NCBI GenBank assembly: GCA_018384485.1
Contig: JAHBAE010000051.1
Location: forward strand, 1-55,910
Origin: Kiritimatiellia bacterium
GTDB taxonomy: Bacteria; Verrucomicrobiota; Kiritimatiellia; RFP12; UBA1067
DNA: 55,910 nucleotides
Reading direction: 5' to 3'
Shown here: positions 2,514 through 42,392 of the stretch, in pieces
How the letters are laid out: every line of letters begins with the position of its first letter
How positions within the stretch are numbered: position 1 is the first letter of the stretch
Made by a program: the position numbers and the translations under genes
The notes under the pieces: generated by a model
What the model was told of the DNA's origin: nothing
Databases searched by the model: none
What the model saw: only the letters and a program-made list of their open reading frames with translations

Positions 2514-2555
2514 GTAGACTGTGCGGAATGCTGAATGATCTCTGCGTCACAATGC

Positions 2556-3671: not shown

Positions 3672-3710
3672 TTTGTCTTTTCCTTTCGATTGTGGAAACC
3701 TGTAAAGTCC

Positions 3711-5378: not shown

Positions 5379-5407
5379 TTCTTTCTTCCCTGCCTGTCCT
5401 CTTTAGT

Positions 5408-5435: not shown

Positions 5436-5489
5436 TCTCGTTTCGCTGTCGGTTCAACCGGTTATCAGTGTACGCGCACCCGCTCGACC

Positions 5490-5543: not shown

Positions 5544-5570
5544 AAAGCTATTTACCTCTAATTGACGCGT

Positions 5571-5600
5571 ATTATAGCATAATGTTGTTTCTGTACGCAA
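5571..5600 (-). promoter_or_regulatory. Sigma-70-type promoter of the ilv leader: TTGCGT-N18-TGcTATAAT
   Basis: Minus strand reads ttgcgt acagaaacaacattatgc tataat. Extended -10 TGn is present. Confidence 0.65.
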
Positions 5601-5636
5601 TGGGAAAAAAGAGTTTCTCTTAGTACCGTTTGAAAG

Positions 5637-5713
5637 TGGTCGGAGCGGAGGGATTTGAACCCCCGACATTCTGCTCCCAAAGCAGACGCACTACCAGGCT
5701 GTGCAACGCTCCG
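5637..5713 (-). tRNA. tRNA-Pro (anticodon UGG), CCA encoded
   Basis: Folded by hand into a 77-nt cloverleaf. Acceptor CGGAGCG/CGCTCCG, anticodon loop TTTGGGA, T-loop TTCAAAT, 3-prime ACCA. Confidence 0.95.
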
Positions 5714-5730
5714 TACGTGAAAACAAGTGT

Positions 5731-5739
5731 ATTATACCA
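5731..5739 (-). promoter_or_regulatory. Extended -10 promoter (TGGTATAAT) for tRNA-Pro
   Basis: Minus strand reads tggtataat, ending 17 nt upstream of the tRNA 5-prime end. No good -35 element. Confidence 0.55.
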
Positions 5740-5746
5740 AATTTTC

Positions 5747-7108
5747 TTACGCTTTGGTTATGTGGATTTTTGCCGCGTCAGTTTTATACGCAGATTTTTC
5801 CGAAACATCTATCTCTTCGCAAATCTTTTCCCCTGGCCTCGCACCAATAAAGACAATAGGTATATCAACATACGGCCTATAGCCCGCCTGCCGTATCATT
5901 CCCTCTGCAAGATCAAGTATCTTAACCCTCTGGCCCATATCAAGCGTATAAATAGCCTTCTCCGTGCGCGAAGCTGCCTGAAGAACAAGCCCCACCGCCT
6001 CGGAAACCATCATGAAATACCTCTCCATCCGAGGGTCTGTCACCGTAACAGGACTTCGTGCAGCAATCTGCTCCCTAAAAAGCTGAACTACAGAACCTGA
6101 CGAGCCAAAAACATTGCCGAACCTGACTGCGCAAAAAGAAGTCTCTCCGCCATTAAGCTCCATCACAGCCTTCTCGGCTGCTTTCTTCGTCTTTCCCATA
6201 ACAGAAACGGGGTTCACCGCTTTGTCGGTAGATATAAGAACGAAACGCTTGACGGCATATTCCTTAGAAAGCTTTGCAAGAAGCCTCGTAGCCTCAGTAT
6301 TGTTACGCCACCCCTCCTCCGGGTTCATTTCAACCATCGGAACATGCTTGTACGCGGCCGCATGCAGAACTATCTCAGGCTTGTGCTCTTCAAAAATTTC
6401 ACGCATCGCCCTCTCGTCGTTCACATCCTTCATAAGAGGCAGAGTCTCAACACCCCTCTTCCCTGCGCGCACCTCGCGCTCAATATTATAAAGAGCAGTC
6501 TCTCCGCGCTCAACCATCAGCACCTTCTTCGGCTTCGCGGCAATAACTTGACGCACTATCTCTGAACCGATCGAGCCGCCAGCTCCAGTAACCATGACGA
6601 CCTTGTCTGAAAAAAACTCAGCCGCGCTCTGCCCCATGTGAAGAACTTCACGATTGATGAGAGATTTTTCCGAGGAGCGCATCTCCCAGAACCAGCACCA
6701 CGCAATGCGCCAGATGACAAGAAAAACAGATGCAAGAACGAAACAGATTAATGTTACCGAATACGGCGGACGCACATGCGCAAAAGAATCAAACGGCATT
6801 GCAAAACGCATTGCCGTAAGGACTACGCAAGCTATAAACGCCGCCGCAAAATAGCGCGGCAGATCACGAAGCGACGTTCTGCGCCATGCAAGGCGATAGC
6901 AACCCGTAAGACCAAGAAAAATAAAATGCACGGCCGCGACAACGGAAAAGCTCGACAAAACGGCAAACCAGCCCCATCGCGGCGCCTGCAAATCAAACCT
7001 TAGGAGAATTGCGCCGTAATACGCAAAAGCGAGAGAGACGGCATCTACAGCTACACCCAACAGACGAGTGGCCGCGAAGATGACCGTCTCTTTCGCTTTC
7101 CTATCCAC
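5747..7108 (-). CDS. Membrane-anchored polysaccharide biosynthesis protein, CapD/WbpM/PglF-like NDP-sugar 4,6-dehydratase/epimerase
   Basis: 453 aa. About 4 N-terminal TM helices, then Rossmann VMVTGAGGSIGSE and the AAAYKHVP (YxxxK) motif. Confidence 0.8.
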   Translation of the reverse strand: MDRKAKETVIFAATRLLGVAVDAVSLAFAYYGAILLRFDLQAPRWGWFAVLSSFSVVAAVHFIFLGLTGCYRLAWRRTSLRDLPRYFAAAFIACVVLTAMRFAMPFDSFAHVRPPYSVTLICFVLASVFLVIWRIAWCWFWEMRSSEKSLINREVLHMGQSAAEFFSDKVVMVTGAGGSIGSEIVRQVIAAKPKKVLMVERGETALYNIEREVRAGKRGVETLPLMKDVNDERAMREIFEEHKPEIVLHAAAYKHVPMVEMNPEEGWRNNTEATRLLAKLSKEYAVKRFVLISTDKAVNPVSVMGKTKKAAEKAVMELNGGETSFCAVRFGNVFGSSGSVVQLFREQIAARSPVTVTDPRMERYFMMVSEAVGLVLQAASRTEKAIYTLDMGQRVKILDLAEGMIRQAGYRPYVDIPIVFIGARPGEKICEEIDVSEKSAYKTDAAKIHITKA

Positions 7109-7120: not shown

Positions 7121-8128
7121 TTACTCCCACTCGATTGTTGCGGGAGGCTTGGGAGTGATATCCCAGACGACGCGGTTGACGCCTTTTACCTTTGTCGCAA
7201 TCTTCTCTGCAACAGACACAACAAACTTGAAAGGAAGCTCGACAATGCCTGCGTGGACGAATTGCGAAGTGGAAACGGCGCGAATCGCAATAACATAACC
7301 GAATGTGCGAGCCCCCTTCGTAACACCAACCGATTTGACATTCGTCATAACAGCAAAGAACTGCTGCGCCTTCTTATCGAGGCCAGATTTTGCCATTTCA
7401 TCGCGGAAGATAAAATCGGCTTTGCGGAGAATATCAAGCTTCTCTTTCGTGAGCTCTCCGAGGCACCTAACCGCAAGACCAGGACCAGGGAACGGCTGAC
7501 GCATCACCATCTCTTCAGGGATTCCGAGAGCCTTGCCGACTTTACGGACCTCATCCTTGTAAAGATACTTCACAGGCTCGACAAGACCCTTGAAAACGAT
7601 ATCCTTCGGGAGCCCGCCCACATTGTGGTGAGCTTTCACCGCCTTGTGCCCGCCCACGCCGGACTCGATAATATCAGGATATATCGTGCCTTGGCCGAGA
7701 AATTCAATATCGCCGAATTTCTTTTTCAAATCGCGCGCTACATCCGCAAAGAGATTGATAAATTCTCCGCCGATGATTTTGCGCTTCTGCTCGGGATCGG
7801 TAACACCGGCCGCCTTATCGAGAAAACGCTTCTCGGCATCGATTTGAATAAGATTGATGCCGAACTTGCCTTTGAAAATGCGCTTGACTTCTTTAGCTTC
7901 ATTAAGCCTCATGCAGCCATGATCGACAAAAACACAAGTAAGCTGCTTGCCGATAGCCTTCTGCAGCAAAACTGCGCATACGGAACTGTCAACGCCGCCG
8001 GACATCGCAAGGAGAACCCTCTTGTCGCCGACTTGAGACCTTATTGCTTCAATCTCGTTCTTAATATATTTTTTTACATTGAAGACTTTGCCTATTTTGG
8101 CAATACGCTCTTTTTCTGCTTGAACCAC
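7121..8128 (-). CDS. guaA: GMP synthase ATP-pyrophosphatase plus dimerisation domains only (GuaA C-terminal part; no glutamine amidotransferase domain)
   Basis: 335 aa. PP-loop SGGVDSSV, then TCVFVDHGCMRLNE, and a C-terminus ending IEWE as in GuaA. GTG start with GGAAGGAG Shine-Dalgarno. Confidence 0.85.
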   Translation of the reverse strand: MVQAEKERIAKIGKVFNVKKYIKNEIEAIRSQVGDKRVLLAMSGGVDSSVCAVLLQKAIGKQLTCVFVDHGCMRLNEAKEVKRIFKGKFGINLIQIDAEKRFLDKAAGVTDPEQKRKIIGGEFINLFADVARDLKKKFGDIEFLGQGTIYPDIIESGVGGHKAVKAHHNVGGLPKDIVFKGLVEPVKYLYKDEVRKVGKALGIPEEMVMRQPFPGPGLAVRCLGELTKEKLDILRKADFIFRDEMAKSGLDKKAQQFFAVMTNVKSVGVTKGARTFGYVIAIRAVSTSQFVHAGIVELPFKFVVSVAEKIATKVKGVNRVVWDITPKPPATIEWE

Positions 8129-25996: not shown

Positions 25997-26908
25997 TCAC
26001 CCTCGCGGATGAAAACGCTTGTGGATATCTTTGAAGAGCGCGACATCGACATGAGTATATATTTGCGTAGTCGATATATCGGCGTGCCCGAGAAGTTCTT
26101 GAATAGCGCGGATGTCGGCGCCGCGCTGAAGAAGATGTGATGCGTAGGAATGGCGCAGGACATGCGGCGAGATGCGATCAGGCGCGATACCCACCTCTAC
26201 CGCGCGTTCACGCACGATTTTAAAAACTCCCTGCCTCGTGAACGCCTTGCCGAGCCGCGTAAGAAAAACATGACTCTCCGAACGGGAGCCTTTGAGAAAC
26301 GTCGGGCGAAAAAGCGTCAAATATTTTTCAAGCTCCCTTCCTGCGACGGAACATATCGGAACGAGCCGTTCTTTCGACCCTTTGCCTTTTACCCTCAAAA
26401 GCTCTCCTTCCGATACGATATCCTCAATGCATAACGCACAAACCTCGCTGACGCGCAGCCCGCATCCATAAAGAACTTCTAAAAGAGCTCTGTCGCGCAC
26501 ATCGTGAGGCTGCTCACCGGAGACATTTTCCAAGAGGCTCTGGACTTCTTCTTCAGAAAGAACTTTCGGCAATACGAAATCTTTCTTCGGGGCATCAAGG
26601 CGCTCCGCAGGATTATCCTTCACGAAATTGCGTGAAACGAGAAAATTAAAAAATGACCTAATTGCAGATGATCGCCGCGAACGCGTACGGGAAGCAAGCC
26701 CCTGAGACCTTGAAGCCGAAAGAAAAGCGACTACATCTTCATACTTAACATCGCGCGATGAAACTATCCTCCGCGAGGAGAGAAAATGCATAAACTCGCG
26801 CAAATCTGAAGCGTACGACTTTGCCGTATTTTCTGAAAGCGCCCGCTCAAGAATCAACGAAGACTCAAAGAGATCGATTTCAGAGCCTAAGGATGAAGTC
26901 ATCAACAA
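25997..26908 (-). CDS. xerD: Tyrosine site-specific recombinase, XerD/XerC type
   Basis: 303 aa. N-terminal SAM-like domain (NTAKSYASDLREF). Catalytic C-terminus HVLRHSYASHLL...LLGHADISTTQIYTHV. Confidence 0.8.
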   Translation of the reverse strand: MLMTSSLGSEIDLFESSLILERALSENTAKSYASDLREFMHFLSSRRIVSSRDVKYEDVVAFLSASRSQGLASRTRSRRSSAIRSFFNFLVSRNFVKDNPAERLDAPKKDFVLPKVLSEEEVQSLLENVSGEQPHDVRDRALLEVLYGCGLRVSEVCALCIEDIVSEGELLRVKGKGSKERLVPICSVAGRELEKYLTLFRPTFLKGSRSESHVFLTRLGKAFTRQGVFKIVRERAVEVGIAPDRISPHVLRHSYASHLLQRGADIRAIQELLGHADISTTQIYTHVDVALFKDIHKRFHPRG

Positions 26909-27740: not shown

Positions 27741-28754
27741 TCACTTCGCCGAAAACCATTTGTTTCGTGCGGCGAAATCAAGATATTCCTTCCAATCGAC
27801 AGAAGTCAACTCATGCTCACCGGGACGGACATGATAATTGATACATGACCTATCCTTCCAGGCGGGAGCAGAATATTCCCAACACGCCATTTCTCCTGGA
27901 GGGCAAGCCCACCAATCGTCAAGAGCGGAGCCGATAGCCATAAGGCGCGGCGAAACTGCAGCAACAAGCCAATGTTGGTCGAAAGGAAGCGAGTAATCCT
28001 TCCCGCTCCAAAGTTTTCCCGCATTCGGCGCAAACCAATGAGGGAAGAAATTCGTTATTCTCTCAATTGATTCACCGTAAAGATTGCGCGAATGAAGGCG
28101 CGCGCCGAAACAACCTGAATTATTGGCGACAGTCATCGCGAAACGTTTGTCGTTGGCGCCTGCCCAAAGCGCAGTTTTGCCGAGCCTCGAATGGCCTACG
28201 ATTGCAATCTTCGATGCATCCGCGAGACTTTCCGTTTCAAGATAATCGACTACGCGGCTTGCCGCAAACGCCCAAGCGGAAATAGCCCCCCATGAATCAT
28301 CCTTGCGCTCAATGCAAGAAAGAACATCAGCTTTGTCTTTAAGAACATCTTCGTAGCAGAACGATACGGTAGATGCGCCTCGTGCAAGAATTTCGGCTAT
28401 CGGCCAGCGCGAATTTGCAGTCTCGGTAGACGGCCTAAACGAAATATAAATAAACACAGGTGTTTTTTCAAAACCGTCGGGGAAATAACAAACCGCATTG
28501 AACGCTTTCTCGCCAAGAGGAGTGAGCGTGTTGATGCGCACAATTTTTCGCGTTGCAGAAAACTCCGGGACCTTCTCCGTCTTTATGACCTTAGCCTCAC
28601 GCACAAAGGACGCCTCTGGCATTTTGCCGTAAACATTCTTGGCAAAAAACGAAAGAACTTCTGCGCGATTCTTATTGAGTTGCGGCGGAGTTTTGACTTC
28701 AGCGCGGCAAAACGCGCAAGCAAGAATGGCAGCAAGAAAAATTCTCAAATTCAT
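27741..28754 (-). CDS. Secreted alpha/beta-hydrolase, CE15-like (glucuronoyl esterase type), paralog A
   Basis: Start at MNLRIFLAAILACAFCRA with an AGGAGG Shine-Dalgarno. Nucleophile motif GHSRLGK. C-terminal GEHELT (putative catalytic His). The family assignment is from memory of CE15 motifs. Confidence 0.6.
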   Translation of the reverse strand: MNLRIFLAAILACAFCRAEVKTPPQLNKNRAEVLSFFAKNVYGKMPEASFVREAKVIKTEKVPEFSATRKIVRINTLTPLGEKAFNAVCYFPDGFEKTPVFIYISFRPSTETANSRWPIAEILARGASTVSFCYEDVLKDKADVLSCIERKDDSWGAISAWAFAASRVVDYLETESLADASKIAIVGHSRLGKTALWAGANDKRFAMTVANNSGCFGARLHSRNLYGESIERITNFFPHWFAPNAGKLWSGKDYSLPFDQHWLVAAVSPRLMAIGSALDDWWACPPGEMACWEYSAPAWKDRSCINYHVRPGEHELTSVDWKEYLDFAARNKWFSAK

Positions 28755-28780
28755 AAATACCTCCTTTTTTCTTTTACACA

Positions 28781-29824
28781 TCACCAACCGTGCTTCTTGG
28801 CGAACTGAATATACACGCTCCAGTCTTCACGCGTAAGTTCATGCCCCCCTTTGCGTATGTGATAATTGCAGCGGGACTGATCTTTCCATGCGTTGCGGGC
28901 AAGGAAGAAACTTGTAAATTCTCCAGACGGGCACGCCCACCAATCTTCGGTCGCGCTGCCCACCGCGAGAAGCCGCGGCGAGATTGTCGCAAGAAGCCAG
29001 TGTTGATCAAAAGGAAGCGAACGATCTTTCCCGCACCAGCGCTCGCGGCAGACAGGGGCAAACCAATGAGGAAACACTCTTGTGATACGATCTATCGTCT
29101 CGCCGCAGACATTCACCGTAGCGCACCTTGCGCCGAAAAGCCCTGAGCAATTAGGGCAAACGAGCTGGAAGCGCGTATCAAGAGCACCTGCCCAAAGCGC
29201 AGTTTTGCCGAGGCGTGAAAGGCCGACAATAGCGATTTTGGACATATCGGCCTCTTCAGTAGTCTCAAGATAATCGACTATGCGGCTGGCGGCAAGCGCC
29301 CAGGTGGAAATTGCACCCCACGAATCCGGGGCGCGGTTTACGCCTTTAAGGACATCTGCCGTATCGTTCAAGACTTCACGGTTGGTAAACGTAACCGTCG
29401 CATGCGAATTCGAGAGTGTAATGTAATCGACGGGCCACCTTTCGACGGCACCTTTATGCGCTTGAAGAAACTGCCTGATGGGCGTTTGAAAGCCAGGCGT
29501 AACCCAGACGGGTACTTTCCCCGCCTTCTTGGGAAAATACGCAGTGGCGATAAAGTTTGTCTCACCGAGCGGAGTTAAGGTGTTAATCTTAATTCTCCTG
29601 CGAATACAAGTTTTTAAGTCGACATTCTCAACGACTTCATAGGAAGGCTTAAAATCCTTCATATCAGGCCGGACGCCGTAAACATTAGTCGTAAAAAACT
29701 CAAGAACGGCTTTTCTGTCAGTATTAAGCGGCGGGATTCCGTACTTTGAATCGTTCCACTCGCCGAAACATACAGGCGAAAAAAGAGCGAAAGCACATAA
29801 GGTGATGTAAACTTTCTTATTCAT
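28781..29824 (-). CDS. Secreted alpha/beta-hydrolase, CE15-like, paralog B
   Basis: Start at MNKKVYITLCAFALFSPVCFG. Motif GLSRLGK (Leu in place of His before the Ser) and GGHELT. By eye about 60 percent identical to paralog A over the catalytic half. Confidence 0.6.
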   Translation of the reverse strand: MNKKVYITLCAFALFSPVCFGEWNDSKYGIPPLNTDRKAVLEFFTTNVYGVRPDMKDFKPSYEVVENVDLKTCIRRRIKINTLTPLGETNFIATAYFPKKAGKVPVWVTPGFQTPIRQFLQAHKGAVERWPVDYITLSNSHATVTFTNREVLNDTADVLKGVNRAPDSWGAISTWALAASRIVDYLETTEEADMSKIAIVGLSRLGKTALWAGALDTRFQLVCPNCSGLFGARCATVNVCGETIDRITRVFPHWFAPVCRERWCGKDRSLPFDQHWLLATISPRLLAVGSATEDWWACPSGEFTSFFLARNAWKDQSRCNYHIRKGGHELTREDWSVYIQFAKKHGW

Positions 29825-29838
29825 AATACTTATTCCTT

Positions 29839-31224
29839 TCAAACCTTGTAATAACTCTCCCAACCCTTGCGCGGCGGAGGCCCTTCGAGATAAAAATCAA
29901 CTTCTTTATCAGATAGAGCGCGCTTGGCGACAGGATCAAACTTGAAGGAGCGACCGAGACGCTGCGCGACAACAGCAAGGCAGAAGACCTGGGAAAGAGT
30001 TCCCGCTACACGGAACGGGCTTTTCGCCTCCGTCTCTCCGCGAACGGCGCGAAGGAAGTTCTTCCAATGATCTTCATAAGATTTCTCAAACTCAGGGACC
30101 TTTTCATCCTGCGCACCGCAACGGACTAAAGTTGCAGAATGAGAAAGCCCCTGCCATACGGTGCCGTCAGCAAGATAAATCTCTTTGCCAGGCTTAAGCG
30201 GCGGGTCGATAAGCCCGTCGTTTGCGGTTGAGGCAGGGAAAAGCCCCTTGTTGTCGACATAACGAAAACCCTTGGGTAGCTTAGGTTTATTATCAACCCC
30301 TTCGTACCACTCAATCTTCACGCCGCCTTTGAATGTCAGCGTAACGGTATCTTCAATCGGGAAGACGAATTTATTCGCGCCTGACAATGAAGATATCTTA
30401 ACCTCCTTTGGGAGAGCGCCTTTTAATGTGAAGCGATGAACTGAATCAAGGATGTGCGCGCCCCAGTCGCCCATGCAGCCCATGCCATAATCATACCAAC
30501 AGCGCCATTCACCGTAAGCGAGATCTTTTGAGAAATCATTATATGGAGCGGGCCCGATCCACGTATCCCAATCAAGCGTTGCAGGCATCTTTTCCGCCTT
30601 GGGGAAGGAATTGATCTTCCCTCCCCACTTGTGCCAGCGCCGCTCCATATTCATGTGGGAAACAACTTTTACGACATCTTTCAAAATGCCTGAGGCAACG
30701 TAATCGCGATATTGGTAGAAACTATTTCCGCTGTGGCCTTGGTTGCCCATCTGGCAGACGACACCCTCTTCCGCCTCCGCCTTCATGAGAAGCTCGCATT
30801 CGTGGAATGAATGGGCAAGGGGCTTTTCGACATAAACGGCCTTGCCGCGGCGAATAGCTTCAATGCAAGCGCAAAAATGCGCATGATCAGGAATGGCGAC
30901 AAGAACGGCGTCGATCTTATCGTCCATTACATCGAACATTTTCCTGAAATCTGTGAAGCGAGGAAGATTGGGATACTTTCTGAGAGTTTTTAAAGTGTGT
31001 TGCGCGCCGATATCAGTATCAACGAGCGCCACAATCTCGCAAAGATCAGGATATTTTTCGAAAGCGTCAACATCCCACGCTCCTTGACCTCCGCAACCGA
31101 TGACCGCGAGCCGCACTTTGGAATTAGCGACATATTTACCGAGCCCTTTACACCCAAGAAAATGCGACGCGCCTGCGGCAGCAAGCGAGCCTACAAAGAA
31201 TCTCCTACTAAACAAATTGTTCAT
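29839..31224 (-). CDS. Gfo/Idh/MocA-family oxidoreductase with Tat signal
   Basis: Start at MNNLFSRRFFVGSLAAAGA with a GGGAGAG Shine-Dalgarno. The tracked ORF runs on to 31317, into the repeat element. Rossmann RLAVIGCGGQG and EKPLAHS. Confidence 0.8.
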   Translation of the reverse strand: MNNLFSRRFFVGSLAAAGASHFLGCKGLGKYVANSKVRLAVIGCGGQGAWDVDAFEKYPDLCEIVALVDTDIGAQHTLKTLRKYPNLPRFTDFRKMFDVMDDKIDAVLVAIPDHAHFCACIEAIRRGKAVYVEKPLAHSFHECELLMKAEAEEGVVCQMGNQGHSGNSFYQYRDYVASGILKDVVKVVSHMNMERRWHKWGGKINSFPKAEKMPATLDWDTWIGPAPYNDFSKDLAYGEWRCWYDYGMGCMGDWGAHILDSVHRFTLKGALPKEVKISSLSGANKFVFPIEDTVTLTFKGGVKIEWYEGVDNKPKLPKGFRYVDNKGLFPASTANDGLIDPPLKPGKEIYLADGTVWQGLSHSATLVRCGAQDEKVPEFEKSYEDHWKNFLRAVRGETEAKSPFRVAGTLSQVFCLAVVAQRLGRSFKFDPVAKRALSDKEVDFYLEGPPPRKGWESYYKV

Positions 31225-31289: not shown

Positions 31290-31562
31290 GGGTGTGATTT
31301 TTCCGTGTAACATCCACTCCCCTTTAAGGATTTCAAAATTCGGAAAAATCACACCCAGGGGTCAGGGGTCAGGCAATGGGCAATAGGGTAGGAATCTTCT
31401 CTTCTATTCTGCCAGCGGTGTCCTACGACACGCGCTCCACATGAAACGAAGCGACATCCTTCACTATTGCCTATTGCCAAACCCCTGACCCCTGGGTGCG
31501 ATTTTCTCGCACTCGGAGGTCAATGATCCGTCAAAGGGATGTCACCTGAGAAAATCGCACCC
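31290..31562. repeat. Composite imperfect palindrome of about 273 bp, containing three nested inverted repeats
   Basis: GGGTGTGATTTTTCCG (31290-31305) pairs with CGGAAAAATCACACCC (31341-31356). The arm aggggtcaggggtcaggcaatgggcaataggg (31357-31388) pairs with cactattgcctattgccaaacccctgacccct (31462-31493). GGGTGCGATTTTCTCG (31494-31509) pairs with GAGAAAATCGCACCC (31548-31562). Confidence 0.8.
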
Positions 31563-31571
31563 ATCGAAAAT

Positions 31572-34500
31572 TTATTTCGATTCTTCCGATAGTTTTTGGA
31601 AATACAACCTAATCAAATTACGGTACTCAAGAGGAATATCTTTTAAATCTTTCTCTCCAAGCCCGTTCTTTGCGGATCCCTTAACCTTAAACCACCCAGC
31701 ATCACGAATTTTCAACTTGAAATTTTCATTCTTTTCAACTGCTTTCAACTCGCGCATCGCATTTTTAAGCTCGCGAGCAACTCCACCTGAAACACTATTC
31801 TTCTCAGAATCATCTGAAGTGCCTGCACCGCCCGAAGATTCTTGCTCATCATCTTCTTTTAACCCCAACTCTTTCGCTTCTTCTTTAAGATGCTCCTTTA
31901 AACTCTCCGCCGCTTCGGCAGCTTTCTTAGCCGAAGATGACATTTTCTCATCATTTTTTTCTGCGGTTGCTTTTTCCTCTGCGGCCTGTTGAGCATTTAA
32001 AAGAGCTTTTTCCAATTCTTTCTGCGCCTCTTGCTGTGCCGCAAGCGCTTCCTTGCGCGCCTGATCCATTTCCTTAAACGCTTCCGCCGCCGCCTTTGCG
32101 CCTTCTCCTCTTTGTTCTGACGCTTTTTTCGCTTCTATCGCCTCATCTATCGCTTCACGCGTTTGCTTTTCGGCTTCATGAAGATCTTCTCTCTCAGAGC
32201 CTTCAACATTCGCATTTTCAAGAACATCCTGCGCCGTGCTTTGCAAATTCATCGCTTGCCGCAAAAGGTGCTGAACTGAGTTGAGATTATTCTCTTTCGC
32301 CGCTCTTTTCAACGCCTCTTCAGCCTCTTTAGAGCGTTGAAGAGCATTTTTATAGGCTTCTTGCTTCATTGCCTCTTCTTGACGGGCAAGTTCTTCCTTA
32401 TGTTTTTTAAGAGCTTCTATGTTGTTCGAGAGCCTTTCAGCCATCTCTGCTTCAGCCTTTTCTTTATTCATCGCATTTCCCGCGTTTTCCATCTCGCGAC
32501 GCGCCTCGTCTACTTCTGCATCATTACTTTCCATAGCCACTTTTTTCGCTTGAGCGGCCGTTTCTTTTTGGAGATGCATCCATGCATCGAGAAGTTTTGG
32601 ATCACTCTTCTTTTCCTCTGCCGCCTTGCTTATTTCCTCAGCCGCCTTTGCAAGTAGTTCCTGGCGCTTAGCGATGTCGCTTATTTTTTCGTAATTGCGA
32701 AGTTTCTCAAATCTTTGCTCCATCGCATTTTTAAGCTCCTCCAGTTTTTCCATTGCCTCTTTCACCTCTTTAGGCATTTCTTCAAGAGCTTTTACACGAT
32801 CCTCACTTGCCGCAAATTGAGCCGTCTCCAGCTTATCCTTGATACTCTCTATCGTCTCATCAATAAGAGAATCAAGTTGTTCTTTCAATGGCTTGAACCG
32901 AGGATCTTCAGCCGCTTTTTCACGCATATCATCAAGGCGCTTTTCAGCTTCATTCATCTCATGCTCCGACAAAGCTATCTGCTTATCGGTTTCTTCGCTC
33001 GCCTTCTTTTCTCTGTTGATGTTGTCCTTCGCTTGGTTTGCCAATCGATCCGCCGCTTCCATTCTCCTGCGAGCTTCGTTAATCAGATTATTCATGTTCG
33101 CTTTTTCATCTACAAGAGACTGCATCTGATAACTTTCAGCCCTGTTTTCAAGATGCACCGTAACTGGAGTCGATGTTACGGAATGAGGCCCGCCCTTTTC
33201 TACCGGATAAGCATCGCGGACACATACGGCAAACTGAAGGAAACTTACATTTTTTAAATCAAGGAGCGAAAGATCCAAATCATCTGCGCCCCTCCAAAGA
33301 GACGCTCCCATTCTTGAAAATTTCGAAAGAGGTCTTAAATTCTGCCAATCGCCATTTCCGATTTTCACAACAATTTCATTTGAAAGATAAAGAGTGTCGT
33401 CGCTTGCAGTAACCTTAATTGGGATTTTTGCATGCGGCGGAACGCGTATTGATTTCTGCGGCTTTTCCAATACAATCGAAGGCGGATTATCAATAACGCT
33501 TTCAAGAACGCCGCCAGCTGGCTGAGCCCTAAACCCTACGGCATTCTCAAGCGTGAGCGACCAAGTGACAACTCTGTTTGAGACCATCGTCCATTCATCT
33601 CGCTGCATACCTGCTATGTTGAGAAACGCTTTATTTGCGCGATGATCAAGCTCTGTTTTAAAATGTACTTTCGAGCCTTCCAAAGCGCGTATGGCGGAAA
33701 TGGCATCGTTCGAAATAACGAGCGTCTTAAGCCCGGAATATTCAGGATATTCAATACACGCCGAAAACGACTTGTAGGACGGCAACTCAAAAACGCGAAC
33801 TGAATAATAGCGCGTCACAGCGGGACCTGCGCTTACGCGATACCTCCAATCATTCTCGGAAAGATTCGCTATCACGCGATAGACGCCGCCGCTCATTGAG
33901 GATGACGTCTCTTCGCTCCATCCGTTCCCGCGGCGGTGGGAAATGCGGATTTCAGGAATATACCTAAAGTCTTCATCTGCCTGCGCGTTTATTTCAATCT
34001 CGTCGCCGAGAAGCGCGTTCACATCACCCGGCTGGACTTTTATCACATCAGAATAAATATTACCGACTTCAACCCACGGAGCGACTATCCTTATGAAAAG
34101 AACGCCTGCAAGGCGAGGCAGTGCGATAAAAGAAACGATTAAAAGCCCTAAGACAATTAAAAGCGCGTAAATGCGGCGAAGAAAAGTGCGGAATGTAAAC
34201 TCTTTTACGATATCAATACTCTCAACAGACAACTCCGCCTTCTTCGCGATTAATCTTATAAACGTCAATGAAGTGGCAATTCTTTTCTTATCTTGAATAA
34301 GCTCAACTAATGTTGTAAGGCATTCTTCGTTGTTTTCATGACGCTCGTCTAAAATCTTTGCGATTTTCAACATATCTATGCGCCTAAGAAGAGGCCGCAG
34401 CACCGTAAGGCACACAGAAAGCAAAGTGAGCAAATAAACGGTTGCGGAAAGCGTCCAGCGCAGAGGATCGTAAAAAATCGTAACGCAGGCGTCTAACACC

Positions 34501-34628
34501 ATAAAAAGAAGCGTGATAAAAAGGAAAACAGCCAAGGACACCGCCGTGCCGCGCAACATATAAATGCGACGCACTCGCTTGGCCGCGCCATTGAGAACAG
34601 CTTCAACCTTCTTAGGAATTTCAATCAT
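31572..34628 (-). CDS. Large membrane protein with a long Glu/Lys/Ala coiled-coil; resembles the DUF4175/TIGR02302-type partners of MoxR-vWA operons
   Basis: 1018 aa. Three N-terminal TM helices, a beta-rich middle region, and about 450 aa of E/K/A-rich heptad-like sequence. C-terminal motif PLEYRNLIRLYFQKL. ATGA overlap with the upstream gene. Confidence 0.6.
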   Translation of the reverse strand: MIEIPKKVEAVLNGAAKRVRRIYMLRGTAVSLAVFLFITLLFMVLDACVTIFYDPLRWTLSATVYLLTLLSVCLTVLRPLLRRIDMLKIAKILDERHENNEECLTTLVELIQDKKRIATSLTFIRLIAKKAELSVESIDIVKEFTFRTFLRRIYALLIVLGLLIVSFIALPRLAGVLFIRIVAPWVEVGNIYSDVIKVQPGDVNALLGDEIEINAQADEDFRYIPEIRISHRRGNGWSEETSSSMSGGVYRVIANLSENDWRYRVSAGPAVTRYYSVRVFELPSYKSFSACIEYPEYSGLKTLVISNDAISAIRALEGSKVHFKTELDHRANKAFLNIAGMQRDEWTMVSNRVVTWSLTLENAVGFRAQPAGGVLESVIDNPPSIVLEKPQKSIRVPPHAKIPIKVTASDDTLYLSNEIVVKIGNGDWQNLRPLSKFSRMGASLWRGADDLDLSLLDLKNVSFLQFAVCVRDAYPVEKGGPHSVTSTPVTVHLENRAESYQMQSLVDEKANMNNLINEARRRMEAADRLANQAKDNINREKKASEETDKQIALSEHEMNEAEKRLDDMREKAAEDPRFKPLKEQLDSLIDETIESIKDKLETAQFAASEDRVKALEEMPKEVKEAMEKLEELKNAMEQRFEKLRNYEKISDIAKRQELLAKAAEEISKAAEEKKSDPKLLDAWMHLQKETAAQAKKVAMESNDAEVDEARREMENAGNAMNKEKAEAEMAERLSNNIEALKKHKEELARQEEAMKQEAYKNALQRSKEAEEALKRAAKENNLNSVQHLLRQAMNLQSTAQDVLENANVEGSEREDLHEAEKQTREAIDEAIEAKKASEQRGEGAKAAAEAFKEMDQARKEALAAQQEAQKELEKALLNAQQAAEEKATAEKNDEKMSSSAKKAAEAAESLKEHLKEEAKELGLKEDDEQESSGGAGTSDDSEKNSVSGGVARELKNAMRELKAVEKNENFKLKIRDAGWFKVKGSAKNGLGEKDLKDIPLEYRNLIRLYFQKLSEESK

Positions 34629-37600: not shown

Positions 37601-38641
37601 GACATTAATTTCGTCCGATACTTCAACTTGATTTGTACAGATGGAATCAGAGGGAATATCGTCGGATAATGAAAGCGATGCTACAACGTTCCTCTTGCCG
37701 CTCTTATCAAACAAGTGCGTAAAGGCGAACGTTCTTGAAAGGCCGGGAAGAATCTGACCTACCGGCAAACGCGCCTTTTCCTCTCCATCAACGGAAAAGA
37801 CGGCGTCTCCCGGAGCAAACGCTTCGCTTCCGGAATTGACAACGCTTACCGTGAAGGTTACGGGACGGTCGGTGCCGATTACTCCGCTTGAAGGGATGAC
37901 GGCGGCAATCGCCGCGTTCTGAACTTTCTCAGGACGCTGAAAAGCGCGCCAAACCACAGGCGGGCGCACCGGAAACCTCTCGAAAACGCGCTCGACGCGC
38001 AACCACTGAGCCCTATCTTCCGTGCGCCAGCCGTAACCTTGACCGTCACCGAATATGATGACTTCCTTCAAAGGATTCTTGCCGACAGAAAGCACCTCCC
38101 CGGCCGCCACAAGAGTATTCGGCACATCCATCGCATCCGAGGAAGATTTGATTTTATGGAGAAGCTCAATAATCTCGCGCTTGTCGGAAATTGGAGAAGG
38201 CGTGAGAATAAGAGGCGTGCGCTCGCCCACAACAAGGCCGAACTTCGTGCCAGAAGGCGAAAGACGCACCAATTCCTCGGCCTCTTCAACAGCATTCTCG
38301 AACGTGGTTTTGCCGCCCGACCCCCCGAGCCGCATAGATGCGGAAGAATCAATTACTATAACTACATCTTTATCGGTTCCCGCGAGGCCGAAGAAACTTA
38401 TCTCCTTCAAAAAAGGCCTTGCAAAGGCAATTACTGCGGCAATGATAAGAAGAGTGCGAATAGCGAGAAGAATGATATCTTCAAGAATGAGCCTGCTGCG
38501 CTTCACGTTGAGCGATTCGCTCAGAAATATCCACGCGCCCCAAAGAATCTGGTCCGCCGTGCGCTTGCGCAAGAGATGGATTATAACTGGTATTGCCGCG
38601 GCAAGAAGGCCTGTTAAAACCAATGGAGCGAAAAATGACAT
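34625..38641 (-). CDS. BatA-type N-terminal double-TM protein with two vWA (MIDAS) domains and a C-terminal TM anchor
   Basis: 1338 aa. N-terminus FFAPLVLTGLLAAAIPVIIHLL. MIDAS motifs VVIVIDSSASM and VAVITDCSLSM. Central TM helices. C-terminal TM ALMILIAALSILWVLRKRK. Confidence 0.75.
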   Translation of the reverse strand: MSFFAPLVLTGLLAAAIPVIIHLLRKRTADQILWGAWIFLSESLNVKRSRLILEDIILLAIRTLLIIAAVIAFARPFLKEISFFGLAGTDKDVVIVIDSSASMRLGGSGGKTTFENAVEEAEELVRLSPSGTKFGLVVGERTPLILTPSPISDKREIIELLHKIKSSSDAMDVPNTLVAAGEVLSVGKNPLKEVIIFGDGQGYGWRTEDRAQWLRVERVFERFPVRPPVVWRAFQRPEKVQNAAIAAVIPSSGVIGTDRPVTFTVSVVNSGSEAFAPGDAVFSVDGEEKARLPVGQILPGLSRTFAFTHLFDKSGKRNVVASLSLSDDIPSDSICTNQVEVSDEINVLLVDGRPASTGYDRAGAFVEAALSPAVKGTNLGFLVRPKVVRSASLENEKAFKGVHAAILCDVPMLSAVATTNLSKYVINGGSLVNLLGPQSKHEYYTNSLFAAKWTNWNDSVENVTFKGAPVIAHAAFDENAFGKNSECAWRYSNGECAGVISSVGRGRTVTLGFPLDFSCTTLPARPQFVPFVHELVYSSLATNFVSSSDDYTWRSREGDLTELTAEQLDAVSVSINLGVARSRDDALAAIVGKSFGLEIWRPFAIAAILLLLAEILFSRRLDSTRGGLVKSHLFTALRVVAVLAMVWQFMHISWVHDVKRRIHRRVAVITDCSLSMQRSDQPVDTNEVARLTVATNLASRIRGILSKNYDVEELVFGSSSTDFAAALDDILETIPSDELSGAVFITDGCDTAGGEISAAVRRFARAGAKISSVVVGSLSNRVDAAVTSLTIPEMVYLGDKIRPTAVVHASGMNGKKISVCLFEGDKEIEKKEYEINSDDWSQSVRFVHDPITKGVHSYSVAINSLEGDVEEKNDVWPFDVAVSDDRTNVLIIDGRPRWEFRYLRNLFFARDKSVHLQYVLAEPDKTAHSASEAPIAADATRKFGDAEANLLPRSYDDWRKFDVIVIGDVPPSFFDENARRSILRVAEERGTMIVFIAGERFMPCEYVKDDLMRILPVAITNTSGEVTARWVEKEVQFTLTPSGMSHPVTSVSHTLSENGRVWGSLPPARAMLDGLVVKPGSEILLYSGDSTAHSLPLVVTSETGKGKVVFLATDETWRLRYRTGDRYHHRFWGNIVNWGSGEKLRDGNANVRVGPGKMNILPGEEVKLSVKFTDRDFNPITNANPVAIVTSPNGGPTHSIALTKRPGGNGYYDAIFDDTAEEGKYSVKIEDKNVAASLGDCWPADLSTYFVSSRTLAPVEYASVKADMKIPEQMARMTGSRVFKVGDDLSLLENGFGAGSVDVVEHVEDPIWNHPSALMILIAALSILWVLRKRKGLA

Positions 38642-39564
38642 CAGCCTCTTCCTCCGTTCTGATGATACCTTATAAGAATATCGGCGAGAGCCTCATCGAA
38701 AGGAGTGCTTGTCGAAACTAACTCGCCGGTAATATGCAGCTCGCCGCACGCACGCTTAAACTCATTATGATGCTTATTGAAACGCTCAAGATACTCGTTT
38801 CTGATTGCACGCGTGTCGATATTGAGGACGGAAGAACTCTCAAGATCTTCAAAGCGGCTCATTCTGGAATACGGGAAGTTAAGCTCTTCGTCCGCAACTA
38901 TCTGAACGGCTATGACTTCATGCTTGCGGTAGCTAAGATGATGAAGCGCCTTTACAAGGGAATTTATCTCGCTGAAAAAGTCGCTCAAAAGAAGAACAAC
39001 TCCCCTTCTCGGTATACGCTCAGCCACATCGTGCAAGACATCGGCAGTTTGCGTCTCTCCGCCGCATTCAAGTGAATTTATTGACTCAAGAATATTTTTA
39101 AGCTGCGCCGGACGCGATTTTGCGGGAATGAAATTACGGATAAGCGAATCGTACGTGACTAACCCGACGGCATCCTGCTGATTTATCAGAAGATAGGAAA
39201 ACAATGCCGCCAGATGCTTGGCGTAATTAAGTTTAGTCAACCCCGCATACGCTTTCTTGCCGCGGAAATTCATCGAACCGGAAGAATCGAGAACGACGGT
39301 GGCCCTCAGATTAGTCTCATCGACAAACTCACGGATATAAAGCCTGCGCGTGCGCGCCACGATTTTCCAGTCGAGCGAACGGATATCGTCGCCGGGCACA
39401 TACTGCCGGTGTTCGGCAAATTCGACGCTCGAGCCCTTCCGCACGCTCTTGTGGCGGCCGGCGACAAAACCGTCGACGGCGCCATGCGCAAGAAACTCAA
39501 GCTTGCCGATTTTCTGGAGGCTCGCGGCGGGCAGCCACCGCATATATGCGGGAAGATCAGACAT
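38641..39564 (-). CDS. DUF58-family protein (vWA-like, MoxR partner)
   Basis: 307 aa. [20 protein letters not shown] motif and VVLDSSGSM. 1-nt TGATG overlap with the downstream gene. Confidence 0.85.
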
Positions 39565-40579
39565 CGATCTCTTCGCTTGTACGCAGATGGTTAAGAAGCC
39601 TTAGAACAATATCGTCGGTTGTTACACCAGCAGCCTCAGCGTTGAACGTTGCGGCTATACGATGCCTGAGAACGGGGAGAGATGCCCATTTGACATCTGC
39701 GAGCGTCGCATACGCACGCCCCTGAAGAACTGCACGGGCTTTCGCCGCCGTTACGAGCGACATCCCAGCGCGAGGCCCAGCCCCCCAGCTTACAAGCTCC
39801 TTAATAAACTCAGGCGCTTCTGGTGATTTCGGGCGTGTGGCGCGTACGAAATCAGCGGCGTACTCGATAACGTAATCTGCCGCGGGGATGCGCCTTATGA
39901 GATCTTGAAGCTCAAGAATCTCTTCTGCGGTAAAAACGACATTTGATTTCTCTCCGCTCTCCCCTGTTGTGCGGCGGATAATTTCACACTCCTCTTCACG
40001 CGAGGGATAATCGACTTTAACATTGAAAAGGAAGCGGTCGAGCTGGGCTTCGGGAAGCGGATACGTCCCCTCCTGCTCGATCGGGTTTTGCGTTGCGAGA
40101 ACGAAAAAGGGATTGCCCAGCGGGTGAGACTCGCCACCAACGGTGACAAAACGCTCCTGCATCGCCTCCAGAAGAGCCGCCTGAGTTTTGGGAGGAGTGC
40201 GGTTGATTTCGTCCGCAAGAAGGATATTCGTAAACACAGGCCCTTTGACGAACCTGAAAACGTGCTTGCCCGTGACGCGGTCTTCATCGAGAATCTCAGT
40301 GCCCGTAACATCGGCAGGCATAAGGTCAGGCGTGAACTGAACGCGCTTAAAATCGAGCTGCATGGTCTCGGCGATTGTTCTAACAAGAAGCGTCTTGGCA
40401 AGCCCGGGAACACCGGTGAGAAGCACATGACCGCGCGCAAAAACGGCCGTAAGCACTTCATCGATCATCGCCTCCTGGCCGACAATCGTCTTAGCCAGTT
40501 CGCGTTTCAACTCAACGAACTTCGCGTGGAATTTTTCCATACGGGCGATGTCCGCCTCTGACTGTGTCTCATTCATCAA
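39557..40579 (-). CDS. MoxR-family AAA+ ATPase
   Basis: 340 aa. Walker A GVPGLAKT, Walker B LLADEINR, and [22 protein letters not shown]. Confidence 0.92.
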
Positions 40580-42342
40580 TTTTCATTCCTTTCTTCTTCG
40601 TCGTCGACAGTTTCGTCGCGTTGATAAATAGGCAACATACGATACGGCACTGCCAGCGCAAGAGCCGTCATTGAAGTGGCATAAGGCTCGCTGCCGACAG
40701 AGTCGCTCTGCCATGAGCCGTCAGGTTTTTGACGCTTAAGATATTCCTTATGCATCCAAGATTCAAAATTGCGCCAATAATCACCGCCTAACTGGAAAAA
40801 CCCCTGCGATGTGTAATAAAGGGCATAATAGCAATAACCTGAATGAAGAAGCGTATTCTTGTATACGTTAGAGAGATATTTGGCGGCTTTCAACGACGCG
40901 GGATCAAGATGGCGGCCGCAAAGCTCAAGGCAGAGTATTCCCGCCCCTGATAGCGTCTCGGCATAGCCACCATTGTTCTGATAGGAAAAGCGCCCATCTT
41001 GCGTCTGAGTGCGCTTAATATAAAGAACTGCTTTTTCAATCGCTTCATCAGGTATCTTCGCACCATTCAAACGCGCACTTCTAAGCGCCATAAGGGCCCA
41101 CCCGCTGCACGACAAGTCGCTATCTTGGGCATCTGGCTGATACCTCCATCCGCCGACATCAGCATCGCTTCTCTTCTTGATATTCTGAGCGTCGACAATA
41201 AGCTTGATTGCATGAGGTAAAACTGCATCAATGCGCGCTTGGTACTCATCATTGACCATACCACTGATTTCCGAAAGGAACAAGGTTCCGATGGAATGAG
41301 CATACATAGCTCCTTCACCGCCCATAAACCCGGGGAAGCGCGATTTTGGATTCATATCGGCTAACTTGAGAACTGAATCCAAGCACTTGTATAAAGTCTC
41401 AGAATATTTGCCGCTCCCCGGCAGATACCCCTTGGAAAGAAAAGCCATGCCTGCAAGAGATGGAATGGCGGCTGTATTGCCGTACCTTCCGTTAAACGTC
41501 CCATCCTCCTTTTGGCTTGACGAGAGATATTGAAGAGCCCTTTCAATCGATTTGTCGACATCATCTGCCACAGGCGAATAGATTGACCTTCCTCCTGCAA
41601 TACGCCAGGAACGCGCGTTCAATACAGAAGAATCAATTTTTGAACTTGGCTTTTCCTCTGGAGCTTTATTATTTAAGGAATCGACAAGAATTGAAGTTGT
41701 TCCCGCGCCAATCGCCCCTAAAGCGAGCAAAGAGCACACAATCGACCACGCACGCTTATAAAGCCACCCTTTCGGCCGCGTAGCCTTAACAAGCCTATCG
41801 GCAAATTCAGGAGAAAGCTCCGTATCCATGAGCATCGCATAAAGCGCATCCTTCGCGTAATGTAGACGGCTACGGACAGTTCCTTCAGGAATGCCTGAAA
41901 TTTTTGAAATTTCAGCCGTCGACATCTCTTCGAAATATTTTAAAATGACTACTTCGCGATAGCTTTCCGGAAGGCGTGTAACGGCTTTGCGAACAGCCTC
42001 GGCACTTCCCCTAAAGGCAAATTCCTCAAAAATGTTCTTTTCATCCTGCACTTCAGGAAGCTCCCCCTCGCAAAGCGAAACCTTGCGAGAGGCTTTTTTC
42101 CTAACATCCATGCGATGAAAATTCAGAAGAATAGTGTATATCCAATAATAAAACGAGCCAGTTGGACGAAAATCATCAATCTTCAATATAGCCTGCTCAA
42201 AAGCTTTAAATACGAGATCTTCCGCTTCGCTTTCATCGCCGCAAAGCATTTTTGCGGCTGTTTGCAGCCGCGCCCGATACTCCGAAACGAGCATTCTTGC
42301 ACCCGCTTCGCGATCTTTTTTTATTAACTCGTAAATCTCCAT
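40576..42342 (-). CDS. ECF sigma-70 factor fused via one TM helix to an extracytoplasmic prenyltransferase/terpene-cyclase-like repeat domain
   Basis: 588 aa. Region 2 is [10 protein letters not shown]...[17 protein letters not shown]. Region 4 is [37 protein letters not shown]. The TM helix is [23 protein letters not shown]. Four QxxDG(s/t/r)(W/F)-type repeats follow: [15 protein letters not shown]...[17 protein letters not shown] and [10 protein letters not shown]. Confidence 0.8.
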
Positions 42343-42392
42343 TCATTATCTAAATGTGTGACAACAAAAAATGTTCAAAATTTTTTCATTTT

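Follow-up and report, generated by a model that had tools for sequence, protein, structure and literature searches.

How is a sigma factor controlled, and what does it transcribe, when it is encoded as one end of a membrane protein and no anti-sigma gene lies next to it? This question is raised by a gene on contig JAHBAE010000051.1 (assembly GCA_018384485.1) of a Kiritimatiellia-type bacterium of the gut or rumen, of which we analysed the whole stretch of 55,910 nucleotides, referred to below as the window. The gene product combines an extracytoplasmic function (ECF) sigma factor, a membrane anchor and a periplasmic alpha/alpha-toroid in a single polypeptide. An ECF sigma factor that carries a fused regulatory extension is regarded as the sigma-factor counterpart of a one-component system, and partner, promoter and regulon have been defined for few such proteins. 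Our analysis indicates that the fused protein is probably an autoregulated, one-polypeptide signalling protein of the ECF sigma/anti-sigma type that heads a MoxR/DUF58/BatA/big2 operon, in which big2 denotes the last gene. An earlier reading of the same DNA, made from its letters and open reading frames (ORFs) and called the sequence-only reading here, had described a sigma factor tethered to a toroid and had missed the operon, the ancestry of the toroid, the split orthologs and the promoter.

An ECF sigma factor, a transmembrane helix and a toroid in one protein

Profile searches placed both sigma domains within residues 1-171. The sigma2 domain scored 36.9 bits (Pfam PF04542, cutoff 24, model positions 1-69 of 71), the sigma4 domain with its helix-turn-helix 56.9 bits (PF08281, cutoff 25.7, positions 2-54 of 54) and the whole module 79.3 bits against the NCBIfam sigma70-ECF model TIGR02937 (cutoff 42.9). 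Only about 30 residues, modelled as disordered, separate the two domains, and neither Sigma70_r3 nor Sigma70_r1 of Pfam had a match at E <= 0.1 in the fused protein. Structurally, the N-terminus matched the ECF sigma factors SigW, AlgU, SigL, SigH and sigmaE in a Foldseek search. The fused protein is an ECF sigma factor by every feature that can be tested on its sequence; among the narrower sigma families of NCBIfam (equivalog and subfamily models) none scored above cutoff, the best being SigE-fam_strep with 88.8 bits against 141.6.

The protein has exactly one hydrophobic peak, at residues 198-220 (1.93 on the Kyte-Doolittle scale over 19 amino acids), which is flanked by a K/R-rich stretch (KGWLYKR) on its N-terminal side and by acidic or neutral residues on its C-terminal side, so that the positive-inside rule is obeyed. 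An AlphaFold2 model based on 49 homologs, with a mean predicted local distance difference test score (pLDDT) of 79.7, consists of sigma2 (residues 1-85), sigma4 (104-175), a short helix (178-188), a long helix (193-220), a disordered region up to about residue 255 (pLDDT below 50 over residues 216-255) and an all-helical domain (257-576) that is modelled very confidently, mostly above 90. In silico, the architecture and an N-in/C-out topology of the protein are clear. Sigma-70 regions 2 and 4 near the N-terminus, a single transmembrane (TM) helix, a toroid with repeats resembling prenyltransferases and squalene-hopene cyclases (SHC), and the lack of an adjacent anti-sigma gene had all been proposed by the sequence-only reading, and all of them were borne out; the genes next to the fused gene are ligA upstream and that of the MoxR ATPase downstream. 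No public name for the fused proteins was present in the sources searched.

The full-length architecture recurs in 95 protein clusters (formed at the 90% identity level) with identities from 97% down to 51%, as well as in 21 further fused loci from different species-level metagenome-assembled genomes (MAGs), which were retrieved by scanning GTDB species representatives. All 21 come from Kiritimatiellia MAGs of gut, rumen or faecal origin, some of which are labelled Verrucomicrobia or Lentisphaerae. An exhaustive search of 1.84 billion representatives at 50% identity returned the full-length fusion as one representative plus fragments, meaning that the fusion defines a narrow clade. In one locus (L027, 166-1889), the fused gene is broken into two overlapping ORFs of 400 and 372 amino acids, by pseudogene formation or an assembly error.

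Split orthologs and the ancestry of the C-terminal part

The orthologous loci occur in different states, labelled A to D. In state C, represented by the window, L002 and L007-L028, the fused gene lies directly upstream of MoxR-DUF58-BatA. In state B (L003, L004 and L006), the same slot upstream of MoxR holds a split version: a separate ECF sigma factor of 175-195 amino acids is followed, after 28-40 bp, by a protein of 442-444 amino acids in the +1 position, which consists of a cytoplasmic tail of about 45 residues, a TM helix and the toroid. Over the full module, residue 1 through sigma4, the split sigma factors are 51-55% identical to the sigma part of the window protein. State A (L001), again directly before MoxR-DUF58-BatA, is a sigma-less toroid with a signal-peptide-like N-terminus. 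State D (L046, 5950-8669) lies beside a canonical toroid operon and consists of an orthologous sigma factor (44% identical) and an overlapping gene for a mini anti-sigma-like protein of 115 amino acids, that is, a tail and a TM helix without toroid. The order in L046 runs from the end-of-operon toroid over an apparent thymidylate kinase gene (a judgement from its sequence only) to the sigma gene, which has TGAAC...GCATT 38 nt upstream. This arrangement may reflect an ancestral condition that preceded recruitment of the toroid.

A motif that precedes the TM helix, L(S/P)xEFxxR(L/F), is common to the linker of the fused proteins, the tails of the split partners and the mini anti-sigma of L046. 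Across 38 fused proteins, mean column identity was 0.72 for this linker, close to the 0.77-0.79 of the sigma domains, and 0.49 and 0.32 for the TM helix and the spacer behind it; E175, F180, L184 and T188 of the linker are invariant. Taken together, the split orthologs and the common motif before the TM helix trace the C-terminal part back to an anti-sigma-like partner in the +1 position. The proposal of the sequence-only reading that this part acts as a built-in anti-sigma factor thereby gains comparative support from L003, L004 and L006 with their +1 protein of tail, TM helix and toroid.

We compared the evolutionary distances of the two halves of the protein. Sigma and toroid distances co-vary (Mantel r = 0.78, a value that none of 2000 permutations reached) and resolve into identical subclades, which implies that both halves share one history.

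A conserved promoter upstream of the sigma system

The unaligned upstream regions of the fused genes have in common the sequence TTGAAC-N15/16-GCATT, which ends 10-18 nt before the start codon. It was found upstream of 21 of 22 fused genes and also precedes the split sigma and split toroid genes; for the split sigma genes of L003 and L004, the distance was counted from the homology-supported start MDIWEEI. We scanned both strands of the fetched loci (1.74 Mb) with the pattern TGAAC-N14-17-RCATT and obtained 32 matches, all but one of which (31/32) lie directly upstream of starts of the sigma system. The genes behind these matches are the fused, split sigma and split toroid genes, batA in L023, the sigma gene of L046 and an ORF of 588 amino acids in L009. 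The motif is absent upstream of the sigma-less toroid gene of L001, and none was found in the E- and U-type loci except at L046's own sigma gene. Several features not demanded by the pattern are conserved as well, namely a T before TGAAC (25/28), a G at the R position (27/28) and a spacer of 15 or 16 nt only, while the sequences of spacer and flanks are not.

In the window, the promoter reads TTGAACATTTTTTGTTGTCACACATT (42378..42353) and leaves 10 nt before the ATG (42343-42352), so that the operon mRNA would be nearly leaderless. The pattern matches the window three times, which is within chance (13 of 100 shuffles yield at least three); the match at 42353..42378 is the sole intergenic one, and those at 23741 on the minus strand and 48494 on the plus strand lie inside genes. 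Sigma-70-type promoters in the region 31-43 kb were no more frequent than expected by chance. From the comparison of these upstream sequences we conclude that TTGAAC-N15/16-GCATT is the predicted target promoter of the fused sigma module and that the five-gene operon would be its main, possibly its only, local target. The motif stands immediately upstream of the fused gene, and the protein thus heads, and most likely positively autoregulates, its own operon. A search for an ECF-type promoter in front of the orthologous operons had been suggested by the sequence-only reading; the AAC-containing -35 element (TTGAAC) was indeed present at 21/22 fused genes, but the -10 element is GCATT rather than of the CGT type.

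A purine run resembling GGAG abuts the start codon in many homologs. L023, with a gap of about 180 bp between DUF58 and batA, has a second copy of the motif (7738-7762), which precedes the start of batA by 13 nt and may be an internal sigma-dependent promoter. In L009, the ORF of 588 amino acids (139-1905) lies between the motif (position 140) and the fused gene, as though it had been inserted into the operon just behind a promoter that stayed in its leading position.

The operon headed by the fused gene

The five genes for the sigma-toroid protein, MoxR, the DUF58 protein, the BatA-like protein and big2 are all joined via overlapping stop and start codons, a translational coupling, and MoxR comes directly 3' of the fused gene wherever a fused locus extends far enough to tell. 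The BatA-like protein has an N-terminal double TM segment, a VWA domain, CARDB- and MG2-like regions and a C-terminal TM segment. For big2, neither Pfam nor NCBIfam gave a match; its product has three TM helices at the N-terminus, and a long E/K-rich region in it appears coiled-coil-like by eye. Judged by gene order, big2 fills the slot of DUF4175 in planctomycete operons, DUF4175 being found in the equivalent slot in Singulisphaera. The operon contains no BatB-E genes (second VWA, TPR) and no second toroid gene; the BatA-like gene is followed only by big2 and then by unrelated oxidoreductase and esterase genes.

The toroid and its history

The C-terminal domain contains three QxxDGx[FW] motifs of the QW type, at Q277 (QKEDGTF), Q446 (QTQDGRF) and Q538 (QKPDGSW), plus a GGW at G397; all motifs quoted by the sequence-only reading are present. 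SQHop_cyclase_C (PF13243) scored 29.1 bits in Pfam (cutoff 26.1), and Foldseek matched the domain to the single-domain toroids 8pak/8paj, which resemble class II terpene cyclases, to AprG and MstE and to SHC, at a target-normalised TM-score of about 0.6 and with E values of about 1e-5 to 1e-6 for 8pak/8paj and 3sqc. Fused, split and stand-alone toroids have about 80 invariant residues in common, and the fused toroid retains every residue that is invariant in the stand-alone ones.

Several identities suggested by this fold were considered and rejected. The DxDD general-acid motif is missing, as neither D.DD nor D.D[DE] occurs anywhere in the fused protein; the profile alignment with SHC is confined to the QW repeats; and the protein has one toroid of 320 amino acids instead of a two-domain cyclase cavity (TIGR01787, 44.7 bits against a cutoff of 322.7). 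On these points the toroid does not classify as a terpene cyclase. A thioester domain of the alpha2-macroglobulin (A2M)/complement type is excluded by the lack of C.EQ and by a PF07678 score of 14.4 bits (cutoff 22) over 23 residues only, and a protein prenyltransferase beta subunit by the absence of any PF00432 (Prenyltrans) match at E <= 0.1 in the window protein. Going by the defining motifs, the toroid is therefore none of the three. The candidate folds named by the sequence-only reading accordingly divided: SHC and class II terpene-cyclase-like toroids were matched by Foldseek, whereas the A2M thioester domain and the prenyltransferase beta subunit failed on profile and motif. Its candidate ligands (a terpenoid, a glycan or an A2M-like protein partner) found no support, DxDD and CxEQ both being absent.

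The toroid family itself is large, with 418 representatives at E <= 1e-30 among the 1.84 billion. The C-terminal 320 residues of the fused protein belong with proteins of about 350 amino acids from the Planctomycetes-Verrucomicrobia-Chlamydiae (PVC) superphylum that are annotated as 'prenyltransferase/squalene oxidase repeat-containing' or 'terpene cyclase/mutase family'. The fused toroid is 50-60% identical to such members from Kiritimatiellia, Lentisphaerae and Verrucomicrobiales and has the invariant residues and the C-terminal LPIYQRDE in common with them. These proteins are stand-alone, carry a signal peptide and are usually encoded by the last gene, whereas the fused toroid is anchored by the sigma factor and encoded by the first. 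In those stand-alone homologs whose N-termini were inspected by eye, a signal-peptide-like sequence occupies the place of the TM helix, locating the toroid beyond the cytoplasmic membrane.

In 39 loci from Kiritimatiellia, Lentisphaerae and Verrucomicrobiales (e.g. Oceaniferula spumae), the toroid of about 350 amino acids is the last gene after homologs of the BatA-like protein and big2. The cultured planctomycete Singulisphaera sp. PoT (CP186274; L089, 1-11116) has the order DUF58, BatA, VWA, DUF4175, a gene for 347 amino acids and the toroid, followed by an NPCBM-domain gene, so that the link between the toroid and Bat-like operons spans the PVC superphylum. Other stand-alone toroids lie beside peptidase S49 and YkuD genes (P0109) or beside a Ser/Thr kinase gene (P0107); the association is frequent, not universal. 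Gene order and N-termini mark the toroid as a subunit of long standing in such operons, one that bears a signal peptide, in Planctomycetota, Verrucomicrobiota and Kiritimatiellia alike. Several MAGs hold both the canonical end-of-operon toroid and the fused operon, which makes the fused operon a paralog, and in neighbour-joining trees, built without support values, the fused, split and sigma-less operon-start toroids form one clade within the end-of-operon toroids of Kiritimatiellia.

A second fusion of sigma factor, TM helix and toroid (624-663 amino acids) was found in five clusters of Isosphaeraceae-related metagenomic sequences (P0251 and P0286-P0289), annotated only as 'sigma-70 family'. 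The nearest stand-alone relatives of the P0251 family are toroids of Isosphaeraceae (Planctomycetota), and in the one locus examined (L088, 884-2860) no MoxR operon adjoins the gene. Being independent, this fusion shows that sigma-toroid fusions arose more than once in PVC bacteria.

The same toroid family also occurs in other fusions, with a SASA carbohydrate esterase in P0160 (808 amino acids) and with PPC and VWA domains in P0253 (1014 amino acids). Further members carry duplicated toroids in membrane proteins of 1400-2300 amino acids (P0190, P0206, P0217, P0241, P0171, P0230 and P0279), P0190 together with PD40 repeats (Pfam). These large proteins with C-terminal toroids were considered as a link between big2 and the toroid and set aside, given the duplicated toroids seen by eye and the PD40 repeats in P0190.

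A working model for the fused protein

We propose that, in gut and rumen Kiritimatiellia, an ECF sigma factor became fused to its +1 membrane partner of tail, TM helix and periplasmic toroid. This partner would in turn be paralogous to the toroid subunit with a signal peptide that is encoded last in MoxR/DUF58/BatA/DUF4175-type operons throughout PVC bacteria. Newly synthesised protein would be inactive, its sigma factor being tied to the membrane and its conserved linker helix, a putative remnant of the anti-sigma tail, probably still contacting the sigma domains. A change sensed by the periplasmic toroid would lead to cleavage in the disordered juxtamembrane spacer and then to intramembrane cleavage, as for IutY or RseA, so that proteolysis would release the sigma factor. 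The freed sigma factor would bind RNA polymerase and raise expression of the operon. The most plausible signal would be that the toroid engages the BatA/big2 machine or the substrate of that machine. Because the operon lacks a further toroid gene and its fused toroid retains the residues invariant in stand-alone toroids, we favour a toroid that still works with the BatA-like protein and big2, and the operon context together with the ECF-type promoter of its own shifts the likely input from a free ligand to the state of the envelope system.

A more specific version, which we put forward tentatively and regard as rather unlikely, has the sigma factor wired to a subunit of the envelope machine, such that docking of the toroid in the MoxR/DUF58/BatA/DUF4175 complex, or remodelling by MoxR-VWA, decides on sigma release. 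By analogy, the logic of such an assembly or occupancy checkpoint would be comparable to that of FlgM/sigma28 and would match synthesis of the machine to its own state. If true, it would offer the first regulatory and genetic handle on the function of Bat-like systems in PVC bacteria.

Some observations weigh against the autoregulated sigma/anti-sigma protein that we propose. No anti-sigma domain (zf-HC2, FecR, RskA) had a Pfam match in the fused or split proteins, and a zinc-binding anti-sigma domain is ruled out there also by the lack of HxxxCxxC; with only about 26 residues between sigma4 and the TM helix, any inhibition beyond tethering is therefore hypothetical. No gene for a site-1 or site-2 protease was found within the window. 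The promoter assignment is purely comparative, and the GCATT element differs from the CGT-type -10 common for ECF sigma factors. In addition, the split forms fall outside the fused ones in the sigma tree and are nested inside them in the toroid tree, so that, the trees being unsupported neighbour-joining trees, the order of fusion and fission is uncertain.

Other explanations would read the same architecture differently. The sigma factor might be active while anchored, recruiting RNA polymerase to the membrane in the manner of ToxR or CadC for co-transcriptional insertion of the products, with conformational tuning through the TM helix in place of cleavage. This would fit the lack of a canonical anti-sigma domain and of a nearby protease gene, the short and highly conserved linker, and the TM helices of the BatA-like protein, big2 and the fused protein alike. 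We consider it unlikely, however: to our knowledge, no sigma factor acts while tethered to the membrane, and with some 26 residues between sigma4 and the bilayer, simultaneous binding of the beta-flap and of -35 DNA would be sterically demanding. Moreover, the separate and presumably diffusible sigma factor of the split orthologs, which has the same partner, argues for sequestration and release, and the disordered, variable juxtamembrane spacer resembles typical substrates of site-1 proteases. It is less probable still that the fusion has little regulatory meaning, a sigma2-sigma4 module having landed before a toroid gene whose product keeps its ancestral job while the sigma factor is controlled elsewhere, e.g. 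through transcription or turnover. Insertions of such modules do generate diverse C-terminal extensions in planctomycetes (Pinto & da Fonseca 2020, PMC7671368), the independent Isosphaeraceae-like fusion has no neighbouring MoxR operon, and the window toroid retains all invariant residues of its stand-alone relatives in an operon without another toroid gene. On the other hand, the linkage is old and conserved (51-97% identity) and its halves co-evolve, the split sigma and toroid genes stay adjacent with the cognate promoter before the toroid gene, the linker motif is conserved and common to the toroid-less mini anti-sigma, and a tethered sigma factor without release or control would be dead or constitutively restrained.

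An equally doubtful alternative treats the toroid as an enzyme of the periplasm or as a receptor for a small molecule or glycan, for which a terpenoid, lipid or sugar would be the direct signal, independently of BatA and big2. The absence of DxDD and of alignment at its place, an SHC similarity limited to QW-type repeats, a single toroid domain without the two-domain cyclase cavity and the strong, phylum-spanning association with BatA/DUF4175 operons all speak against this, even though the nearest folds are those of single-domain toroids resembling class II terpene cyclases and of AprG, which binds sugar, the roughly 80 invariant residues suggest a defined site, one family member is fused to a SASA esterase (P0160), some stand-alone copies lie outside Bat-like operons and the host genome is rich in glycan-degrading genes. 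Finally, a frameshift or assembly artefact that joined a sigma gene to the gene of a secreted protein, which the sequence-only reading had named as fatal to its interpretation, is hardly conceivable. Split versions exist in other organisms and the gene of L027 falls into two ORFs, but the comparative data refute an artefact: the fused gene is present in 95 clusters and 21 further loci, in 20 of which (all but L027) the identical architecture is uninterrupted in independent assemblies, and the conserved linker of the fused proteins joins sigma4 directly to the motif before the TM helix.

Comparison with known systems

The closest precedent for our model is IutY of Pseudomonas putida (ECF243-type), whose fused C-terminus is an anti-sigma factor subject to regulated proteolysis via Prc and RseP (PMC8999054). 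Like the fused protein, IutY has an N-terminal ECF sigma factor, one TM segment and a periplasmic C-terminal part in one polypeptide. IutY has an anti-sigma domain of the FecR type and belongs to TonB-dependent cell-surface signalling, whereas the fused protein has no recognisable anti-sigma domain, carries a periplasmic toroid, comes from another phylum and heads a MoxR/VWA operon. Activation by proteolysis has also been proposed for the ECF48, ECF52 and ECF53 fusions (PMC8999054). These actinobacterial proteins, e.g. SCO4117 of Streptomyces coelicolor, likewise combine an ECF sigma factor with C-terminal TM helices and a large extracytoplasmic domain. They contain a zinc finger (ZAS-like) and carbohydrate-binding or glycosyl-hydrolase domains, in contrast to the fused protein, which has no HxxxCxxC and differs in fold and operon. 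The fused protein thus resembles the sigma/anti-sigma hybrid ECFs but lacks the recognisable anti-sigma domain that marks them.

Among canonical pairs, sigmaE-RseA, SigW-RsiW and AlgU-MucA have exactly the gene arrangement of the split orthologs L003 and L006, which carry a promoter of the autoregulatory type, and the sigma module is structurally closest to the sigma factors of these pairs. In the window, by contrast, the genes are fused, and only about 20 residues are left of the cytoplasmic anti-sigma part. Planctomycete ECF sigma factors have heterogeneous C-terminal extensions that stem from an inserted, duplicated sigma2-sigma4 module (Pinto & da Fonseca 2020, PMC7671368), and the main text of that study does not mention a prenyltransferase- or SHC-like extension. 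They come from the same superphylum and likewise have the sigma module set before another coding region; the extension found here differs in being the sigma factor's own +1 partner, conserved and co-evolving, with an identifiable promoter and operon.

The Bat or MoxR-VWA operons of Bacteroides, Leptospira and Borrelia also contain MoxR (AAA_3), DUF58 and a BatA-type VWA protein with a double N-terminal TM segment. The operon of the window differs from them in its BatA-like protein of 1338 amino acids, the protein in the DUF4175 slot and the toroid, and BatB-E/TPR genes were not found in it. No established biochemical function is given for Bat systems (PMC3557215, PMC5700661). The literature searched contained no ECF sigma factor with a squalene- or prenyl-type extension, no link between MoxR/Bat and a toroid and no Kiritimatiellae ECFs, a listing in the supplementary tables of the ECF classification being possible.

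The sigma-toroid family offers, in silico, a cognate promoter, a target operon of five genes and a natural series of split, fused, sigma-less and mini anti-sigma forms that can be compared directly. It indicates that an envelope system can supply one of its structural subunits as an anti-sigma-like partner, whose cytoplasmic part can shrink to a motif of about 20 residues after covalent fusion. Our data also tie abundant, uncharacterised toroid proteins of Planctomycetota, Verrucomicrobiota, Lentisphaerota and Kiritimatiellia to MoxR/VWA/BatA/DUF4175 operons, and they suggest an inducible paralog of this system in gut and rumen Kiritimatiellia. The pair of promoter and sigma factor is a possible orthogonal regulatory part. 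No concept is overturned, and the mechanistic steps beyond the architecture are inference.

Features and surroundings of the operon

Table 1. Coordinates of the fused gene, its domains, its promoter and the operon in the window.
Feature	Position	Strand	Basis
ECF-type promoter: -35 TTGAAC (42378..42373), 15-nt spacer, -10-like ACATT (42357..42353)	42353..42378	-	comparative
Fused gene: ECF sigma factor, linker, TM helix, spacer, toroid	40576..42342	-	single open frame, 588 amino acids
sigma2 domain, residues 18-84	42091..42291	-	Pfam PF04542 Sigma70_r2, 36.9 bits
sigma4 domain, residues 115-167	41842..42000	-	Pfam PF08281 Sigma70_r4_2, 56.9 bits
Conserved linker after sigma4, residues 172-192; putative residual anti-sigma tail motif	41767..41829	-	column identity, motif sharing
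Single TM helix, residues 198-220, N-in/C-out	41683..41751	-	Kyte-Doolittle, AlphaFold2, N-termini of homologs
Variable, disordered juxtamembrane spacer, residues 221-255	41578..41682	-	pLDDT, column identity
Periplasmic single-domain (alpha/alpha)6 toroid, residues 256-576, with invariant C-terminal end	40615..41577	-	pLDDT, Foldseek
MoxR-type AAA+ ATPase	39557..40579	-	Pfam AAA_3 213.6 bits and AAA_lid_2; start overlaps stop codon of fused gene
DUF58/VWA protein	38641..39564	-	Pfam DUF58 165 bits and VWA_2; overlaps end of MoxR
BatA-like membrane protein, 1338 amino acids	34625..38641	-	Pfam BatA 46.3 bits and VWA_2; TIGR02226 63.5 bits
big2, 1018 amino acids, last gene of the operon	31572..34628	-	ATGA overlap with BatA-like gene
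Nested inverted repeats, about 254 bp, directly after the operon	31290..31563	.	self-complementarity

The inverted repeats have arms of 49 nt (31345-31393 and 31457-31505) that are 88% complementary, with two perfect 16-nt pairs on GGGTGYGATTTT, and their 12-mer occurs within the window only here. The region is probably the end of the operon or a terminator region, and the repeats might represent either a terminator complex or a small mobile element of palindromic type. Intrinsic terminators in the region 31-43 kb were no more frequent than expected by chance, and an Rfam search across the window returned two tRNAs only.

The remainder of the window is ordinary chromosome with ilv, rnf, rpoN, clpB, ligA, lysS and smc genes and genes for glycan-degrading enzymes. 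Two tandem paralogous genes resembling glucuronyl esterases (348 and 360 amino acids, with a 7-nt overlap) are located at 27741-29863, downstream of a GFO/IDH/MocA oxidoreductase gene, and a tyrosine recombinase gene of the XerC/D type at 25997-26908. Over positions 1-6000, across ilvB/ilvC/ilvD, the G+C content is 0.56-0.60, compared with 0.46-0.53 elsewhere in the window.

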